64,000 nucleotides of DNA from assembly GCF_013315695.1 (NCBI RefSeq), contig NZ_CP054354.1. One strand, written 5' to 3'. A program made the position numbers and the translations under genes. Within the stretch, counting starts at the first letter, position 1. Every line of letters starts with the position of its first letter. This document shows, piece after piece, positions 21,690 to 39,902 of the stretch. The notes beneath the pieces are model-generated. The model was given only the letters and a program-made list of their open reading frames with translations, had not been told where the DNA came from and made no database searches. Source of the stretch: Escherichia coli. GTDB taxonomy: Bacteria; Pseudomonadota; Gammaproteobacteria; Enterobacterales; Enterobacteriaceae.

Positions 21690-22240
21690 CCTTCGGCTCC
21701 CGGCTGCCTGGCGGCATCCGGTCGTCAGGCCCGACTCCGACAGGCAGCTGCTGGCGCACCCGCCAGTCTCCGCCGAACCCGCTGGCGCGGTTTCGGGCTG
21801 CCGCTACGGTCCGATGTCTGAAAAACCAGGCTTGCAGCGACCGTTCCGGTCGCGCCGCCTCTGTCGCGCCGTGACCTGCGCTCCCTGCACACCTGACGGT
21901 GTGTAAGGAAACTGCGCCTGATGGCGCAGTTGTCTGCCCTTCCGCCGCCCCCCCTGCGGCCTGTTTCCCCGCTGTGGACTTTCCGGGGGCTGAAGCGGCC
22001 ACAACACGTTTCAGCCGTCCAGGGGAGAGATGTACCAGCCACAAAACTTTTTGCCGCAAGCGTCAAAAACTTTTGCGTCTGCCCCCGGACAACTGCCCCG
22101 TGCCGTGGCAGTCGCTGCCCCATCGGAAAGGTCCACTGCGGGGAGAAACCCCGAAGAAGTGGACGGCAGAAGGGGCTTTCGCCCCTCCGGGGGAGCAACC
22201 GGTCGGCCCGGCGACCTGATTCAGCAGAAGGAGACGTTTT
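21690..22240. repeat. GC-rich non-coding element, family B copy 2 (Frpo/ssi-like)
   Basis: Aligns with 15343-15905 along most of its length; ends at the RBS of the 22242 gene. Confidence 0.65.
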
Positions 22241-22768: not shown

Positions 22769-23035
22769 ATGAGACCATCAATTATCTTCGCAACCGCCGA
22801 GTATGTAAAGCGTCTGCGAGAAGAGTGCCTGCGGGAGAACAAACCCCTGCACCGCCATACCCGCTTCAGACGCCAGGAACTGGCACCGGATGAGATTAAC
22901 CCGGACGTCCTGGCGATGGGCGGTCATATCGCCAGACGCTGCAGTGAGCAGAAGCGGGTACGTATCCCCGCCATGAAAGTCAGCGAATGGGGCCACCTGC
23001 TCCGCGCGCTTGAAATTGAACGGGTCTGTCACTGA
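22769..23035 (+). CDS. Hypothetical basic protein (88 aa)
   Basis: ATG at 22769 after ctatggagattatgcc; Arg/His-rich. Confidence 0.45.
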   Translation: MRPSIIFATAEYVKRLREECLRENKPLHRHTRFRRQELAPDEINPDVLAMGGHIARRCSEQKRVRIPAMKVSEWGHLLRALEIERVCH

Positions 23036-23211
23036 TTAACCCCTGCCGTCTGCCTGTGCAGGTGGCAGGATGTGTTCAGGTACTTTACCAGGAGGAACCG
23101 TGAGCAAGATGAAAAACATCACGACGTCTGTGTTGCATGGTGTCTCCACAAAAAACAGAAAAGGGAAACAGATTCTCTTTCATTCAGGGCCCGGGAGGGC
23201 TGGAGATAACA

Positions 23212-23601
23212 ATGAAGTCTTGTTTTGATACTGACAAAGCTTTTCATATGTCTTTTGATGAAGTCACTTTCAACGCTGACAGAATTCGCTCAAAACTGGA
23301 ACTATTATCCGAAGAACTAATGCCCCGTTGTGGTCTTGTTTATGAGCTATATCAGCGACGTTTGAGTGCTGCTATTGATAATTTTGTGGCCACATTGCCG
23401 ACAGAACAACATCTACTGGTCCTGGAACTGGCCCGTGAGGAGTTTGATTACCTTTCCGCAGAAGAGATTGCTGAAGAAATACGCCGTGACTCAGAACGCG
23501 GCTATTGTTGTCATGGCTTTGAACGCAATTGCTGTCCTCTCGGTTGTGGGGATTTGGGCGATGATTGCTGCGATGCTGCTGATTTGATGGAGGAACCGTG
23601 A
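23212..23601 (+). CDS. Hypothetical acidic protein with Cys-rich C-terminus (129 aa)
   Basis: GGAG RBS 23202-23205; C-terminal CCHGFERNCCPLGCGDLGDDCCD. Confidence 0.5.
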   Translation: MKSCFDTDKAFHMSFDEVTFNADRIRSKLELLSEELMPRCGLVYELYQRRLSAAIDNFVATLPTEQHLLVLELAREEFDYLSAEEIAEEIRRDSERGYCCHGFERNCCPLGCGDLGDDCCDAADLMEEP

Positions 23602-24512
23602 GTAAGAAGAAAAACACCACAACGCCCACGCCGCATGATGCCGCGTTCCGGTCGTTCCTGGCGAATCCCGACGTCGCCAGAGATTTTCTGGAACTGCATC
23701 TTCCTGCGGAGTACCGGCAGTTGTGCGACCTGTCCACGCTGAAGCTGGAACCCGCCACCTTTGTAGAGCCGGACCTGCATCAGTACGCCAGCGATATCCT
23801 CTGGAGCGTGAAAACCACCGGGGGTGAAGACGGCTATGTTTATACGCTCATCGAGCACCAGAGCACAGAAAATCTGTACATGCCTTTTCGCATGTTACGC
23901 TACAGTGTGGCGGCGATGCAGAGACATCTGGAGCAGCACAAAACGTTGCCACTGGTGATTCCGGTGCTGTTCTATCACGGTGAGCGCAGCCCGTACCCGT
24001 ACAGCATGAACTGGCTGGACTGTTTTGAGAATCCGGCACTTGCGGCTAAAATATACACAAAACCGTTTCCGCTGGTTGATATCACTGTCGTTGATGACAA
24101 TGAAATCATGAATCATCGCCGGATGGCCGCACTGACGCTGCTGATGAAGCATATCCGCCATCGTGACATGATGGAGCTGCTGGACAAACTCCCGCAGGTC
24201 ATGGTGGAAATTTCAGACGAGCAGGTGCGTGTTCTGATTCATTACATCGTTAACGCAGGGGACTCTGTATCACCGGAATTTATGCGGGCGCTGGCTGAGC
24301 GTCTGCCGCAGCATGAGGATAAACTGATGACTATCGCAGAACGTCTTGAGCAAAAAGGTCGCCAGGAAGGCAGGATGGAAGGACGCATGGAAGGAGCGCT
24401 TGAAAAAGCCCTGGCTATTGCGTGCCAGCTTCAGAAAATGGGGATGACGCCGGAGCAGATTAAGCAGGCTACCGGACTTTCCGATGACGAACTGAAGAAA
24501 ATCACTCACTGA
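23598..24512 (+). CDS. Rpn (YhgA-like) recombination-promoting nuclease, PD-(D/E)xK family
   Basis: 304 aa, GTG start after GGAGG; N-terminal PHDAAFRSFLANPDVARDFLELHLP and C-terminal QEGRMEGRMEG...MGMTPEQIKQATGLSDDELKK are characteristic of Rpn proteins as recalled. Confidence 0.8.
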   Translation: MSKKKNTTTPTPHDAAFRSFLANPDVARDFLELHLPAEYRQLCDLSTLKLEPATFVEPDLHQYASDILWSVKTTGGEDGYVYTLIEHQSTENLYMPFRMLRYSVAAMQRHLEQHKTLPLVIPVLFYHGERSPYPYSMNWLDCFENPALAAKIYTKPFPLVDITVVDDNEIMNHRRMAALTLLMKHIRHRDMMELLDKLPQVMVEISDEQVRVLIHYIVNAGDSVSPEFMRALAERLPQHEDKLMTIAERLEQKGRQEGRMEGRMEGALEKALAIACQLQKMGMTPEQIKQATGLSDDELKKITH

Positions 24513-24519
24513 TGAGAAC

Positions 24520-24552
24520 CGCAAAGCCCGGCAAAATCCCGGGCTTTTTTGC
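24520..24552 (+). terminator. Rho-independent terminator after rpn
   Basis: aaagcccggcaaaatcccgggctttttt: GC stem plus T-run. Confidence 0.6.
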
Positions 24553-24574
24553 CTGCAGGAGCAGAGCAAACAGC

Positions 24575-24745
24575 ATGACGATTGCAGAACGTCTTATACA
24601 GAAAGGTTTTGAAAAAGGTGCTCTTGAAGTGGCGCGGGAAATAGCCTGCCGGCTGCGGGATATGGGCTGGACGCCGGAACGGATTCAGGAGGCGACCGGA
24701 CTTTCCGGTGAAGAACTGAAAAAGCTGTTTCCTGATGAGCAGTAG
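24575..24745 (+). CDS. Free-standing Rpn C-terminal-domain paralogue (RpnS-like small protein, 56 aa)
   Basis: MTIAERLIQKGFEKGALEVAREIACRLRDMGWTPERIQEATGLSGEELKK parallels the rpn C-terminus MTIAERLEQKG...; begins after the rpn terminator; weak RBS. Confidence 0.45.
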   Translation: MTIAERLIQKGFEKGALEVAREIACRLRDMGWTPERIQEATGLSGEELKKLFPDEQ

Positions 24746-24775
24746 CCTGGCATTCTGCCAGGCTGTGAATCACGC

Positions 24776-25027
24776 TCACACATCCTCTGCCGTTTCCCCC
24801 AGTTCATTTTCCAGTCGCCTGATGATATCTGCCTTACGCATCCCCTGCATGTGAGGCAGCAGGTCACGGACTGAAAGTGCCTGGGTGGTCCTCCAGACGG
24901 TGACATCCACCTGCTCCGCATTTTCCCAGGCGTGCCATGTTCTCTGTGTCACGCCAAATTCTCTGGCCGCTTTTTCGCGTGACCAGAGCATGCTTTTTCG
25001 CCAGATTCGCAGTTCCCAGCCGGTCAT
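24776..25027 (-). CDS. Small Xre-like helix-turn-helix regulator (83 aa)
   Basis: REKAAREFGVTQRTWHAWE resembles an Xre-type HTH; divergent from the leading-region genes; operator-like repeats upstream. Confidence 0.5.
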   Translation of the reverse strand: MTGWELRIWRKSMLWSREKAAREFGVTQRTWHAWENAEQVDVTVWRTTQALSVRDLLPHMQGMRKADIIRRLENELGETAEDV

Positions 25028-25039
25028 AAAATACCTTTT

Positions 25040-25140
25040 AAAAAGTGAAAAAACTTCACTTTATTTTATCACCATAATCACCAAATCAGCGCGAAAAATA
25101 AATGTGAAAAAGTGAAGAAATTTCACTTTTTTTAGTTGTA
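25040..25140. promoter_or_regulatory. Inverted-repeat operator candidates (GTGAA-N-TTCAC) upstream of the Xre-like gene
   Basis: aaagtgaaaaaacttcacttt and gtgaaaaagtgaagaaatttcac in an AT-rich stretch. Confidence 0.4.
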
Positions 25141-25229
25141 GATGTCGTGCTGTTTTCTCTGTTTTCACCTGTGCGGGAGTGGGTGTCAGTGACCACCACA
25201 TGCCATTGTTGTGCCGTCGTTTTTCTTCA

Positions 25230-25600
25230 GTCGCGCCGGATGCAGCGCTCCCTGCACACCTTACGGTGTGTAAGGCCACTGCGCCTGATGGCGCAGCTGT
25301 CTCTGCCTGTCTGCCGCCGCACTGCGGCCTGTTCTCCGCAGACGGACTTTCCGGGGAACATACACGACCACATCCCGTTTCAGTTATCCAGGGGAGAGAT
25401 GTACCAGCCACAAAACTTTTTGCCGCAGGCGTCAAAAACTTTTGCGTCTGCCCCCGGACAACTGCCCCGTGACGTGGTGAGCATCCCCCGTCGGAAAGGT
25501 CCACTGCGGGGAAATCCCCGAAGACCCGGACGGCAGAAGGAGCTTCGCTCCTCCGGGAAATGACCTGGCTGACCCGGCAGTCGTGACGATGAGGAGACAA
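25230..25600. repeat. GC-rich non-coding element, family B copy 3 (partial, 3' ~370 bp)
   Basis: Aligns with the 3' part of 15343-15905 and 21690-22240; ends at the RBS of the 25605 gene. Confidence 0.6.
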
Positions 25601-35819: not shown

Positions 35820-36010
35820 AATAATCTACGGACAGATTACTTTCTGTACTTCCAGAGCCTGTTTCTGTGAGTCAAACATGAGCTGGTTTTTACCGACTAC
35901 ACCCAAGTAAATATATTCGATATCTCCCATTTGCCGTATTTTCGTAAAATTCAACAGGAAATATTCAACGGGAGTGAGAGAACTGCTGTCCGGGGAGGAG
36001 GTACAGACGC

Positions 36011-36044
36011 AAAAAAACCGACTGGTGAGGCCGGTTTTTTTGCG
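36011..36044. terminator. Hairpin with flanking A/T runs at the start of type I module 2
   Basis: aaaaaaaccgactggtgaggccggttttttt, paralogue of 35282-35312. Confidence 0.55.
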
Positions 36045-36105
36045 ATTCCGGATCGAAGTTGGTAGCCCTGACCGGAAGATAACTGCCTATAACTGACTAT
36101 GAAAT
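36045..36105 (-). ncRNA. Predicted antisense sRNA for module 2
   Basis: 36071-36101 repeats 36254-36292 (toxin 2 leader) at ~26/30; repeat sequence differs from module 1. Confidence 0.3.
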
Positions 36106-39420: not shown

Positions 39421-39749
39421 GATGTGTCCTTGTTTTTTATTATTTTGCATTTCAGAAAATAACACGATGCCTGCAGCCCGGAAAACAGATGTGTGCACAC
39501 GTAGTCACTTTCCGGCTTTATTTCTGTCCCTGACACAAAATACGTGGTGGCATGAAAAGGATTGTGGCGGACTGGAAAACGATTAGAATAGCGGCGGGCG
39601 CTTGAGGCTGTATGCCGAAAGCGTTTTGTGGACGGCATGTAGCAGAAAGCCCCAGGCGATTTTTTTATCAATCAACCCAGGGCCCACTGTAATGCCTCAA
39701 CAACATTATAGTAGCCCGATGACGGCCGAAAGGCAATGGAGGGGCTGCG

Positions 39750-39902
39750 ATGCCACAACGAACGTTTTTAATGATGTTAATCGTCGTCTGTGTGACGATA
39801 CTGTGTTTTGTCTGGATGGTGAGGGATTCGCTTTGCGGATTTCGTATCGAGCAGGGAAATACGGTGCTTGTGGCAACGTTAGCCTACGAAGTTAAACGTT
39901 AA
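39750..39902 (+). CDS. Hok/Gef-family type I toxin (PndA-like, 50 aa) with overlapping mok-like frame
   Basis: MPQRTFLMMLIVVCVTILCFVWMVRDSLCGFRIEQGNTVLVATLAYEVKR fits the Hok pattern (...R.SLC....G...V.A.LAYE.K); overlapping ORF 39692-39895 ends 7 nt before the hok stop, as mok does; below the ORF-track cutoff. Confidence 0.7.
   Translation: MPQRTFLMMLIVVCVTILCFVWMVRDSLCGFRIEQGNTVLVATLAYEVKR

Follow-up and report, generated by a model that had tools for sequence, protein, structure and literature searches.

The RpnP2 locus of an IncI1 plasmid leading region probably combines a displaced tail cassette with a ccgAII cassette set between a decayed and a real rpn start

The Rpn locus studied here lies in the window, a stretch of 64,000 nucleotides of Escherichia coli DNA, and is probably best read as the RpnP2 module of IncI-complex conjugative plasmids, in which the small downstream gene rpnSs is a displaced tail cassette and a ccgAII cassette sits between a decayed and a real rpn start. 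The RpnP2 system itself has already been published and is not new. The locus was therefore judged real but largely ordinary, since RpnP2 is known, the small gene appears to be a displaced tail copy and the Cys-rich gene a common insertion variant. The related plasmids number roughly 2,000, and about 30 loci were surveyed in detail. Direct observations are the homologies, the RpnP2 identity, the arrays of cassettes and the polymorphism of the indel.

An IncI1 plasmid matched the window at 100%, and the window corresponds to the leading region of such a plasmid. The gene order is ardA, ygcA, ygdA, a ccgAII-like gene, rpn, a small open reading frame (ORF), a helix-turn-helix gene, a DUF4942 gene and nikA/relaxase. 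The rpn module lies 2.4-3.5 kb from oriT, downstream of an Frpo-type single-strand promoter repeat. The minus strand of this repeat folds into a long single-stranded DNA hairpin (z = -8.3), and its repeat families D1, D3, D7 and D9 recur at 25227-25545. Frpo-type repeats have been described in IncI leading regions (Venturini et al. 2013, PMC3817090). A search of Rfam gave no match in the region. The features of the module and its flanks are as follows.

21860-22178, minus strand: first copy of the Frpo/ssi-like single-strand-promoter repeat, situated upstream of the operon
22769-23035, plus strand: ygdA, 88 aa (ORF list; annotation of loci L001 and L002), adjoining rpn directly in insertion-free plasmids
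23598-24512, plus strand: rpn (rpnP2, ygdB), encoding RpnL, 304 aa, GTG start, a PD-(D/E)XK-type nuclease toxin (Pfam PF04754; TIGR01784)
24327-24512, plus strand: intragenic rpnS, 61 aa, predicted internal ATG at M244 (MTIAERL), read from the sequence
24360-24395, plus strand: three 12-nt, 4-aa repeats (RQEG RMEG RMEG) in helix 1 of the tail, read from the sequence
24523-24550, plus strand: hairpin and T-run terminator, the 3' part of the tail cassette, from the fold
24575-24745, plus strand: rpnSs, tail cassette, 56 aa, with one FEKG repeat, by homology to the Rpn tail
24776-25027, minus strand: ygeA, convergent helix-turn-helix gene ending the block (annotation; ORF list)

The rpn product matched Pfam PF04754 (Transposase_31/YhgA-like) over residues 11-207 with an E-value of 2.2e-78, and the Rpn family TIGR01784 with 181.9 bits against a cutoff of 52.1. 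No Rpn model was matched in PADLOC, and a PDB sequence search with Rpn returned no match. Over its first 108 nt, rpn agrees exactly with the synthetic RpnP2 gBlock of Zhong et al. 2023. The N-terminal 132 aa of RpnL equal those of RpnP2 except for the four residues engineered in the published active-site mutant; D14, D66, E86 and Q88 are intact in RpnL and are the sole differences from the translated mutant gBlock. As judged from these sequences, the rpn gene of the window is the rpnP2 of Zhong et al. 2023 (PNAS), for which the toxicity, the antitoxin action and the defence against T-even phages of RpnP2LS have been published (PMC10400941). A search of the literature after 2023 on RpnS, RpnL or RpnP2 yielded nothing further.

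RpnP2 of the E. coli ECOR13 plasmid (PMC10400941) is thus the same gene, and its upstream ygdA context is 93% identical. Both loci have the internal MTIAERL start, the 4-aa repeats and then an rpnSs beginning with MTIAERLIQKGF. The two alleles differ in front of rpn: the ECOR13 allele is insertion-free (ygdA, 64 nt, rpn), whereas the window has a 498-bp ccgAII segment at this place.

The production of RpnS from an internal start is established for Rpn proteins including RpnP2 (PMC10400941). In the window the predicted rpnS start is intact, with the Shine-Dalgarno sequence GAGGA at 24315-24319 and a 7-nt spacer before the ATG at 24327. The tail repeats that follow are also a known feature, as variable four-amino-acid repeats were already reported by Zhong et al. 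2023 (PMC10400941); among the related plasmids the number of RQEG/RMEG repeats in RpnL ranged from 0 to 5. Behind the rpn stop codon, sequence and fold both gave a hairpin, AAAGCCCGG-N7-CCGGGCTTT, at 24523-24547, with a T-run reaching 24550. The terminator proposed for this place in the initial annotation is thus present, and the list produced by a simple terminator scanner lacked it.

The same annotation had proposed that the 56-codon product downstream parallels the Rpn C-terminus, and alignment identified it as a true homologue. Compared with Rpn residues 244-302, rpnSs showed 34/59 identities (58%, E 2e-17) with one 8-residue gap, its first 11 residues being nearly identical to the Rpn tail. 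It also matched TIGR01784 positions 225-273 (E 2.9e-7), and its homologues carry precomputed PF27070 HTH_Rpn_C matches. DUF4351 (PF14261), which is mentioned for some species, was not matched by the rpnSs product even at E <= 10. An AF2 model of rpnSs was all-helical (pLDDT 83), and its top match among 350,542 PDB chains was RpnA-S 7TH0, the crystal structure that represents the helical-bundle fold of RpnS, with 44% identity, TM scores of 0.56/0.67 and a Foldseek E-value of 0.57. A 77-aa version of the small ORF in RefSeq, starting at 24512 and running through the terminator hairpin, was rejected, since in the equivalent spacers of locus L024 this extension meets a stop or falls out of frame, and since other records annotate the MTIAERL start.

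It had further been suggested that the tail is encoded here by a separate gene instead of internally. This did not hold: since the internal RpnS start at M244 and its good Shine-Dalgarno sequence are kept, rpnSs adds a copy and does not replace the internal one. From its sequence, the locus encodes an intragenic RpnS plus an additional rpnSs.

An attractive function for the free-standing 56-aa protein would be that of the dedicated antitoxin of the locus, directed against the adjacent full-length Rpn. We consider this unlikely. The similarity to the tail, closest in the first 11 residues, argues for such a role, as do an ORF that is intact in every allele examined with indels in multiples of 12 nt, a pN/pS of 0.32, and the experimental detection of the analogous YpaA/RpnESs protein (PMC10400941). 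However, the internal start remains available for RpnS, and the published RpnP2 construct ends 101 nt past the rpn stop and includes 13 codons of rpnSs. This RpnP2LS construct, without an intact rpnSs, was non-toxic, grew like the vector control and was protective against phage (PMC10400941). Since it was non-toxic and protective with only these 13 codons, rpnSs is not needed against the toxin, contrary to the counteracting role first assigned to the small gene. The repeats also speak against a dedicated antitoxin. For RpnC, a matching repeat number is needed for inhibition and one extra repeat abolishes it (PMC10400941), while the repeat numbers of RpnL and RpnSs were equal in 1/12 distinct combinations. 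This repeat-matching rule is established for RpnC only, and RpnSs might still bind RpnP2L. Finally, locus L033 is devoid of any rpnSs.

In the first four loci the RpnL/RpnSs repeat numbers were 3/1, 1/3, 1/2 and 4/0. The idea that they are always unequal or complementary was discarded on account of locus L026 (1/1), and the two counts look independent of each other in the sequences compared.

The related plasmids differ in their number of tail cassettes, from a single fused one to two or three, and this comparison led us to read rpnSs as a displaced tail cassette. Locus L024 has three tandem cassettes that share the 5' sequence ATGACnATnGCAGAACGTCTT, the terminator hairpin and the spacer, and one that is free-standing in L024 corresponds to the internal tail of this window. 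In loci L012 and L015-L020 a different tail, of the IQQG type, is fused to RpnL. L033 has a single, fused cassette, the crossover lying at the TGLS motif. This hybrid is the sole case found of an rpnSs-type tail on Rpn: no full-length Rpn with such a tail was present among the best 120 of 329 protein matches.

According to the explanation that we favour, RpnL would be a toxic PD-(D/E)XK nuclease whose cognate antitoxin, RpnS, starts internally at M244. The rpnSs gene would be an older or alternative tail cassette, the unit consisting of the ATG, the helix-1 repeats, the helix-turn-helix tail, the terminator hairpin and the spacer. Recombination at the conserved MTIAERL boundary has probably displaced this cassette from the nuclease domain, after which it would have persisted as a small gene of its own, still recombining with the resident tail. 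Neutralisation of RpnL would not require it.

A small gene that is not needed by its neighbour could also be a non-functional remnant hitch-hiking beside rpn. It is placed behind the terminator with a weak or distant Shine-Dalgarno sequence (AGGAG, 13 nt before the ATG), it was dispensable in the published construct and was lost in L033, and its pN/pS was the highest of the three regions compared (nuclease domain 0.05, internal tail 0.18, rpnSs 0.32; 5-12 non-independent alleles). Nevertheless, a pN/pS well below 1, an ORF that stays intact from 0 to 6 repeats in all alleles seen, with no frameshifts and every indel a multiple of 12 nt, and its presence in 1,340/5,426 complete E. coli genomes make decay an improbable explanation as well. 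The pattern of variation suggests instead that rpnSs is maintained by moderate purifying selection, and we infer that the gene is expressed.

Another role considered for rpnSs is that of a cross-immunity or anti-defence factor. Through early expression in the leading region, it would neutralise those Rpn nucleases of the recipient cell or of competing plasmids whose tail matches its own. Its position near ardA and psiB, downstream of the Frpo-like element, the purifying selection and a repeat number uncoupled from that of the neighbouring RpnL are compatible with this role. On the other hand, the best 120 of the 329 matches offered no full-length Rpn with this type of tail, the L033 hybrid being the only one found. 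We therefore hold both the cross-immunity role and its early action after transfer to be very unlikely.

Free-standing rpnSs genes downstream of chromosomal rpn genes have already been described, namely ypaA (RpnESs) and RpnCSs, next to rpnE and rpnC (PMC10400941). The window gene resembles these in lying directly downstream of rpn, in being closest to the tail of its own neighbour, in its 4-aa repeat variation and in its loss by fusion with the rpn tail. It differs from them in being plasmid-borne, within a conjugative leading region, and in belonging to arrays that reach three cassettes in the relatives. With respect to domain content, the window rpnSs lacks the DUF4351 match and its homologues carry HTH_Rpn_C.

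Polymorphic toxin loci, such as CDI (cdiA-CT/cdiI) and Rhs, combine a conserved junction with swappable tandem C-terminal cassettes located downstream, the displaced ones being retained. In rpn, by contrast, the variable module is the antitoxin/oligomerisation domain and not the toxin, and no secretion system is involved, so that the resemblance is one of analogy and not of homology. By this analogy, the rpnP2 tail cassettes might form a switching system comparable to the orphan modules of polymorphic toxins, with the displaced tails acting as early cross-immunity or anti-defence proteins; we regard this as quite unlikely.

The second peculiarity of the locus is found upstream of rpn, where the following features were delimited.

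23063-23142, plus strand: diverged pseudo-copy of the rpn initiation region, from alignment with IncK2/Z and insertion-free alleles
23100-23228, plus strand: 42-codon remnant ORF from the pseudo-start, in frame within the ORF 23070-23228
23150-23215, plus strand: conserved 5'UTR element (CUP-like) that travels with leading-region cassettes, from copies in other plasmids
23212-23601, plus strand: ccgAII-like Cys-rich gene, 129 aa, from homologues named CcgAII
23589-23640, plus strand: downstream repeat copy, the genuine ribosome-binding site of rpn with its first 14 codons; insertion-free plasmids (in their single copy) and the RpnP2 gBlock have the identical sequence

The motif GGAGGAACCGTGAGYAAGAWGAAAAAC was found in exactly two copies in the 64 kb, and 0/100 shuffles gave any match. 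The duplication that the initial annotation had seen on both sides of the Cys-rich gene is therefore confirmed, at 23091-23117 and 23589-23615, the second position having been one base off. The repeat extends to 52 nt with 79% identity (23091-23142 and 23589-23640). Together with the ~28 nt before it, the upstream copy is 20-33% diverged from the real rpn start; class-specific fixed differences occur at 23063-23086, and conservation is perfect over the 18 nt at 23087-23104. The pseudo-copy comprises ~28 nt of 5'UTR, a Shine-Dalgarno sequence AGGAGG at 23090-23095, a GTG at 23100 and about 14 rpn-like codons. The remnant ORF that begins there stops 17 nt inside the ccgAII-like gene. In IncK2/Z plasmids the pseudo-copy keeps about 24 codons and its start is in frame with ccgAII, so that gene callers predict a 171-aa fusion (P0125).

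A target-site duplication left by a mobile element was rejected, because the copies, 52-80 nt long, are only 79% identical and because neither a transposase nor terminal inverted repeats were found in 23143-23588. On alignment, the upstream copy is a diverged pseudo-start, as opposed to a recent duplication of a target site. A donor carrying a full-length rpn' with the remnant-type 5' end (GTGAGCAAGATGAAAAACATCAYGACGTCT) was not found.

The product of the ccgAII-like gene is made up of a four-helix core and a C-x-H...CCPLGCGD knuckle; the extensions at both of its termini are non-native. It shares 50-76% identity with proteins named CcgAII, including the invariant C99, H101, C107, C108, P109 and G113. 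The homologues found elsewhere are about 100 aa long, end in ...CCPLGCGDL(DDY) with a different native C-terminus and have no adjacent rpn. In the AF2 model the pLDDT was above 90 at residues 22-95 and below 50 at residues 1-15 and 113-129. Neither Pfam, NCBIfam nor the PDB gave a match, a fold search was without meaningful match, and the "CbiX" label of some records had no support from Pfam or NCBIfam. Like CcgAII of the IncN plasmid pKM101, one of the CUP-controlled leading-region genes, the window copy lies in a leading region, but it differs in its junction-made terminal extensions and in the pseudo-rpn start upstream. Copies of the 5'UTR element, 80-84% identical, were present in about 480 other plasmids, with 2-4 per record, before unrelated genes; in the IncX1 locus L004 the element is placed after TTGCCA-17-TATAAT.

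Venturini et al. 2013 (PMC3817090) had already noted that ccgAII adjoins a 'transposase' (rpn) in the leading regions of IncI/IncZ plasmids. Among roughly 2,000 related plasmids, counted with a 1-kb query and read by record span, the 498-bp segment was carried by about 500 (~25%) and absent from about 1,500 (~75%), in which ygdA is joined directly to rpn. An insertion of the Cys-rich gene at the rpn start had been put forward, and the comparison of plasmids revealed a presence/absence polymorphism exactly there, while the repeat could not be kept as its fresh footprint.

The polymorphism can be read in the opposite direction. If the ccgAII-bearing arrangement were ancestral, the common insertion-free allele would have arisen by deletion between the two copies of the rpn start. 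Copies of 52-80 nt in direct orientation lend themselves well to deletion, the upstream copy is old (21-25% divergence), and both alleles, with and without ccgAII, occur across the IncI1, IncI-gamma/K1 and IncK2/Z labels. Such a deletion is possible but doubtful, because 9/9 insertion-free alleles are purely downstream-type right after the shared 14-18 nt. In addition, the non-native and predicted-disordered C-terminal extension of ccgAII into the rpn Shine-Dalgarno sequence resembles a junction artefact, ccgAII and the UTR element are found as cassettes away from any rpn in IncF and IncX plasmids, and an earlier event creating the duplication would still be required. We thus infer that the event was an insertion.

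In the insertion reading, a promoter-less ccgAII cassette, made of the 5'UTR element and the Cys-rich gene, would lie between the decayed and the real rpn initiation regions, resulting in a chain of overlapping frames from the remnant ORF through ccgAII to rpn. The TGA of the ccgAII-like gene overlaps the GTG of rpn (GTGA), and translation would be coupled along this chain. As a further part of the quite unlikely switching system, a translationally coupled ccgAII cassette might retune the RpnL:RpnS ratio.

As the system is already published, the value of these results is that of a refinement. The RpnP2 that has been studied experimentally is the ygdB "transposase", which some 2,000 sequenced IncI-complex plasmids encode in their leading region and which one in four complete E. 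coli genomes contains. The role of rpnSs becomes an easily testable question, since its repeats are uncoupled from those of its neighbour and since it is absent from a functional published construct. Natural variants with one, two or three cassettes, together with the alleles that have or lack ccgAII, provide ready comparisons for tail switching and for the control of the RpnL:RpnS ratio. If tail switching does occur, recombination at MTIAERL would change the tail fused to the nuclease and thereby its self-specificity, and the displaced tails would be expressed early after transfer against matching-tail Rpn proteins of the recipient or of rival plasmids. The identity of RpnP2 with ygdB links a defence/toxin module to the part of conjugative plasmids that enters the recipient earliest.

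The Rpn proteins have been described as toxin-antitoxin systems in which the RpnL nuclease is blocked by RpnS, its C-terminal domain made separately from an internal start; the plasmid-encoded RpnP2, from ECOR13, defends against T-even phages (Zhong et al. 2023, PNAS; PMC10400941). The elements of the rpn locus in the window are as follows.

23150-23215: 66-nt element with two small hairpins, second part of a 498-bp segment upstream of rpn
23212-23601, plus strand: Cys-rich, ccgAII-like gene (129 aa), third part of that segment
23598-24512, plus strand: rpn, GTG start, 304 aa
24523-24550: 9-bp GC-rich hairpin with a T-run, 3' of the rpn stop
24575-24745, plus strand: rpnSs, free-standing tail-like gene of 56 codons

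The rpn product matched the Transposase_31/YhgA-like family of Pfam (E 2.2e-78) and scored over the TIGR01784 cutoff. The gene was compared with the synthetic RpnP2 fragment of Dataset S2 of Zhong et al. (2023; PMC10400941). Ahead of the ribosome-binding site, the 305 nt in this fragment were 93% identical to 22800-23104 of the window, a stretch made up of the ygdA end plus intergenic sequence; the first 108 nt of rpn were identical, and the translation of the active-site mutant differed from the first 132 residues encoded in the window only at the engineered D14A, D66A, E86A and Q88K. The gene in the window is therefore rpnP2, and its active site is intact. So is the internal start of RpnS (ATG at 24327, M244, MTIAERL..., with GAGGA upstream and a 7-nt spacer). 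A sigma-70-like site (24025-24052, TTGAGA-16-TAAAAT, 10/12 matches) was observed within rpn, 275 nt upstream of this start; it could yield an RpnS-only transcript and hence alter the RpnL:RpnS ratio.

The initial annotation had proposed that the small ORF 3' of rpn parallels the Rpn C-terminal domain. Alignment of its 56-aa product with Rpn residues 244-302 gave 34/59 identities (E 2e-17) with a single 8-residue gap, and the elements lay at the positions assigned to them. The proposal of a free-standing tail gene was thus correct, but the phenomenon had already been described: such genes were named rpnSs by Zhong et al. (2023; PMC10400941), one being ypaA, which lies 3' of rpnE, and according to that paper they can be lost when deleted or when fused to rpn. 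RefSeq calls instead a 77-aa protein, whose ATG overlaps the rpn stop and whose frame runs through the terminator hairpin. This start was rejected: the extension is not kept in frame in equivalent spacers, and the MTIAERL start is annotated in other records. The 56-codon model is the better one. The AF2 model of the rpnSs product was all-helical (pLDDT 83) and its best fold match among 350,542 PDB chains was E. coli RpnA-S (7TH0; 44% identity, TM 0.56/0.67), with an E-value that is non-significant for so small a domain. Homologues of the product bear the newer Pfam family PF27070, HTH_Rpn_C; a search of the product itself against the Pfam library used gave no match to PF27070 or DUF4351. Of 5,426 complete E. 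coli genomes, 1,340 carried DNA resembling rpnSs; the sites numbered 2,618 on plasmids and 30 on chromosomes.

Four-amino-acid repeats are known to tune the RpnS-RpnL specificity (Zhong et al. 2023; PMC10400941), and the 8-residue gap in the alignment corresponds to two of them: three repeats are found in RpnL/RpnS of the window (RQEG RMEG RMEG) versus one in RpnSs (FEKG). Over about 30 related loci, the numbers ranged from 0 to 5 in RpnL and from 0 to 4 in RpnSs, protein lengths in a large database implying up to 6 for the latter. The idea that the two numbers are complementary or never equal was refuted by locus L026, where both are 1, the only case of equality among 12 distinct combinations. 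The repeat numbers of RpnL and RpnSs also do not show the co-variation to be expected if the two were a cognate pair matched by repeats.

The published RpnP2LS construct ends 101 nt past the rpn stop, 13 codons into rpnSs, where the reverse primer matches ...CTTATACAGAAAGGTTTCGACG; cells carrying it grew like the vector control and were protected, while RpnP2L alone was so toxic that cloning worked only under tight repression (PMC10400941). Since a construct with only 13 rpnSs codons grew normally and protected, rpnSs is not needed to neutralise RpnP2L. The gene is not merely decaying: its frame was intact in every allele examined (all indels being multiples of 12 nt) and its pN/pS, from a crude pooled estimate, was 0.32, whereas the internal tail gave 0.18 and the nuclease domain 0.05.

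Three Rpn tail cassettes were found in tandem in a related locus, L024 (GCA_022812185.1, JAIPXM010000116.1, 1310-1995). In the first, RpnL is fused to a different, IQQG-type tail (KQEG IQQG x4 VQQG ... ALQKAREIARELRNAGM...); the second is a free-standing 53-aa gene corresponding to the EQKG-RQEG tail that is internal in the window; the last is an IQKG-type rpnSs. The cassette start ATGACnATnGCAGAACGTCTT is common to every unit, and each ends with CTGATGAG, a GCCCGG...CCGGGC hairpin and the spacer GCCAGCAGGAGCAGA. A diverged copy of this hairpin follows the last cassette of the window (24746-24775). Seven other loci (L012, L015-L020) contained only the IQQG tail on RpnL and the IQKG rpnSs. In locus L033 (NZ_CP074952.1, 872-1771), a single hybrid tail is of the EQKG type up to the conserved TGLS motif and of the rpnSs type beyond it, and a separate rpnSs is absent; recombination between the two cassettes has caused a deletion here. 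These arrangements show the Rpn tail to be a modular cassette. In the most economical reading, a new tail would be gained at the domain boundary and displace the resident one to a downstream position; there the older tail would persist as a small gene that keeps a start and a terminator of its own, and it could recombine back later. By analogy only, such displaced tails are like the orphan modules in polymorphic toxin loci. The displacement reading agrees with suggestions in Zhong et al. (PMC10400941).

Upstream of rpn, allele classes were read from the length of the record matched by a 1-kb query running from ygdA to rpn. All 1,001 nt were contained in about 500 records; in the majority, both ends of the query were matched within 503 nt, exactly 498 bp being missing. 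An evenly spaced sample gave 8 rows with the segment versus 23 without it, and 116 nt specific to the segment were found at at least 80% coverage in 507 records, the frequency of the ccgAII insertion being about 25%. In pCH41, which lacks the segment (annotated ygdA, ygdB "transposase_31"), and likewise in the RpnP2 construct, 64 nt separate ygdA from AGGAGGAACCGTGAGTAAGAAG..., the downstream-type copy of the rpn start alone. The check put forward in the initial annotation, a comparison with related plasmids lacking the segment, thus had a positive outcome. The adjacency of ccgAII to a "transposase" in IncI/IncZ leading regions had been noted in 2013 (PMC3817090).

The 27-nt motif reported as duplicated at the rpn start occurred exactly twice in the 64 kb and was matched by no shuffle; the second copy spans 23589-23615, so that its initial placement was one base too far to the left. 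Similarity between the copies reaches 52 nt at 79% identity (11/52 positions differ). The first part of the segment is a pseudo-copy of the region where rpn translation is initiated. About 24 rpn-like codons are retained by IncK2/Z plasmids (L005/L006, 2490-3016), of which the window lacks 14 nt. Within the 24 nt that immediately precede the first SD, 8 differences were fixed between 9/9 insertion-free and 5/5 insertion-bearing alleles examined; the first 100 nt of rpn showed 0-2 differing positions, none class-specific. A fresh target-site duplication is ruled out by these 11/52 and 8 class-fixed differences. Of the two directions, the more parsimonious is that a ccgAII cassette without a promoter was inserted, coming from a diverged relative; the converse, in which the insertion-free allele would have arisen by deletion from an ancestral duplicated state, is less so, because cassettes exist elsewhere and the ccgAII C-terminus is non-native.

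Because 18 nt, ACCAGGAGGAACCGTGAG (SD and GTG, 23087-23104), are perfectly conserved inside a pseudo-copy otherwise 20-33% diverged, the pseudo-start may still be used for translation, as this conservation suggests. In the IncK2/Z plasmids, the remnant is 14 nt longer and shares the ccgAII frame; the fusion protein that gene callers predict there has 171 aa and starts with Rpn-like residues (protein group P0125, 200 member sequences). In the window, the pseudo-start opens a 42-codon ORF ending 17 nt inside ccgAII, and the ccgAII TGA overlaps the rpn GTG. We infer that the remnant ORF, ccgAII and rpn would form a chain of translationally coupled frames. No published description of the pseudo-start was found in the literature.

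Copies of the 66-nt element with 80-84% identity precede unrelated genes in about 480 plasmids, IncX1 and others, which often carry 2-4 of them each. Since it directly follows a TTGCCA-17-TATAAT promoter in IncX1 locus L004 (2581-2648), it is a 5'UTR module, and in IncI and IncX plasmids it may correspond to the CUP elements of pKM101. Homologues of the Cys-rich protein are named CcgAII (about 100 aa, ending ...CCPLGCGDL(DDY/P)) and occur without adjacent rpn in IncF, IncN and other plasmids. Compared with these, the window protein has added N- and C-terminal residues (...GDLGDDCCDAADLMEEP), its last codons and stop being supplied by the rpn ribosome-binding site. AF2 gave a confident four-helix core (residues 22-95, pLDDT >90) with extensions below 50, and no match was obtained in Pfam, NCBIfam or a PDB fold search. 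The "CbiX" label of some records had no Pfam or NCBIfam support; an "antirestriction" role is quoted in PMC3817090, where no backing data were found.

The 2.5 kb around the rpn locus were 100% identical to the E. coli IncI1/B/O conjugative plasmid NZ_CP146671.1, and more than 2,000 plasmid records, mostly from Escherichia, Salmonella and Shigella, matched this region, 93% of them predicted conjugative. The annotated order is psiB, psiA, ardA, ygcA, ygdA, the 129-aa hypothetical, the Rpn family nuclease, a small hypothetical, a convergent HTH regulator, a DUF4942 protein, nikA/mobA and the relaxase. The flanking features are:

21860-22178 and 25227-25545: direct repeats of about 320 nt, bracketing the whole ygcA-ygdA-ccgAII-rpn-rpnSs-ygeA block
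27107: start of nikA
27451: start of the relaxase gene

The starts of nikA and the relaxase gene place the rpn locus on the leading side, 2.4-3.5 kb from oriT, with transcription running in the direction of oriT. On the minus strand, each repeat folds as a long ssDNA hairpin (z = -8.3 for one and -7.8 for the other), and the pair is consistent with the Frpo-type single-strand promoters reported for IncI leading regions (PMC3817090). The palindromic motif AAAAAGTGAAnAAAnTTCACTTT occurs twice (25040-25062 and 25109-25131) a short way upstream of ygeA, the HTH gene on the minus strand (24776-25027), and is a likely operator for the ygeA regulator. Elsewhere in the window, a sok antitoxin RNA (39596-39752, plus strand, 124.7 bits) and an AgrB-like antisense RNA (36009-36096, minus strand, 47.7 bits) exceeded the Rfam gathering score.

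Overall, the observation of the initial annotation was confirmed and its interpretation partly supported. The system is already known, both as RpnP2 itself and through the free-standing rpnSs genes, and none of the new points, which are modest, establishes a new kind of system. These are the view of rpnSs as part of a cassette array, with RpnSs repeat numbers uncoupled from those of the neighbouring RpnL; the published RpnP2 construct that is functional without a complete rpnSs; and the anatomy and roughly 25% frequency of a ccgAII insertion with a decayed pseudo-start.
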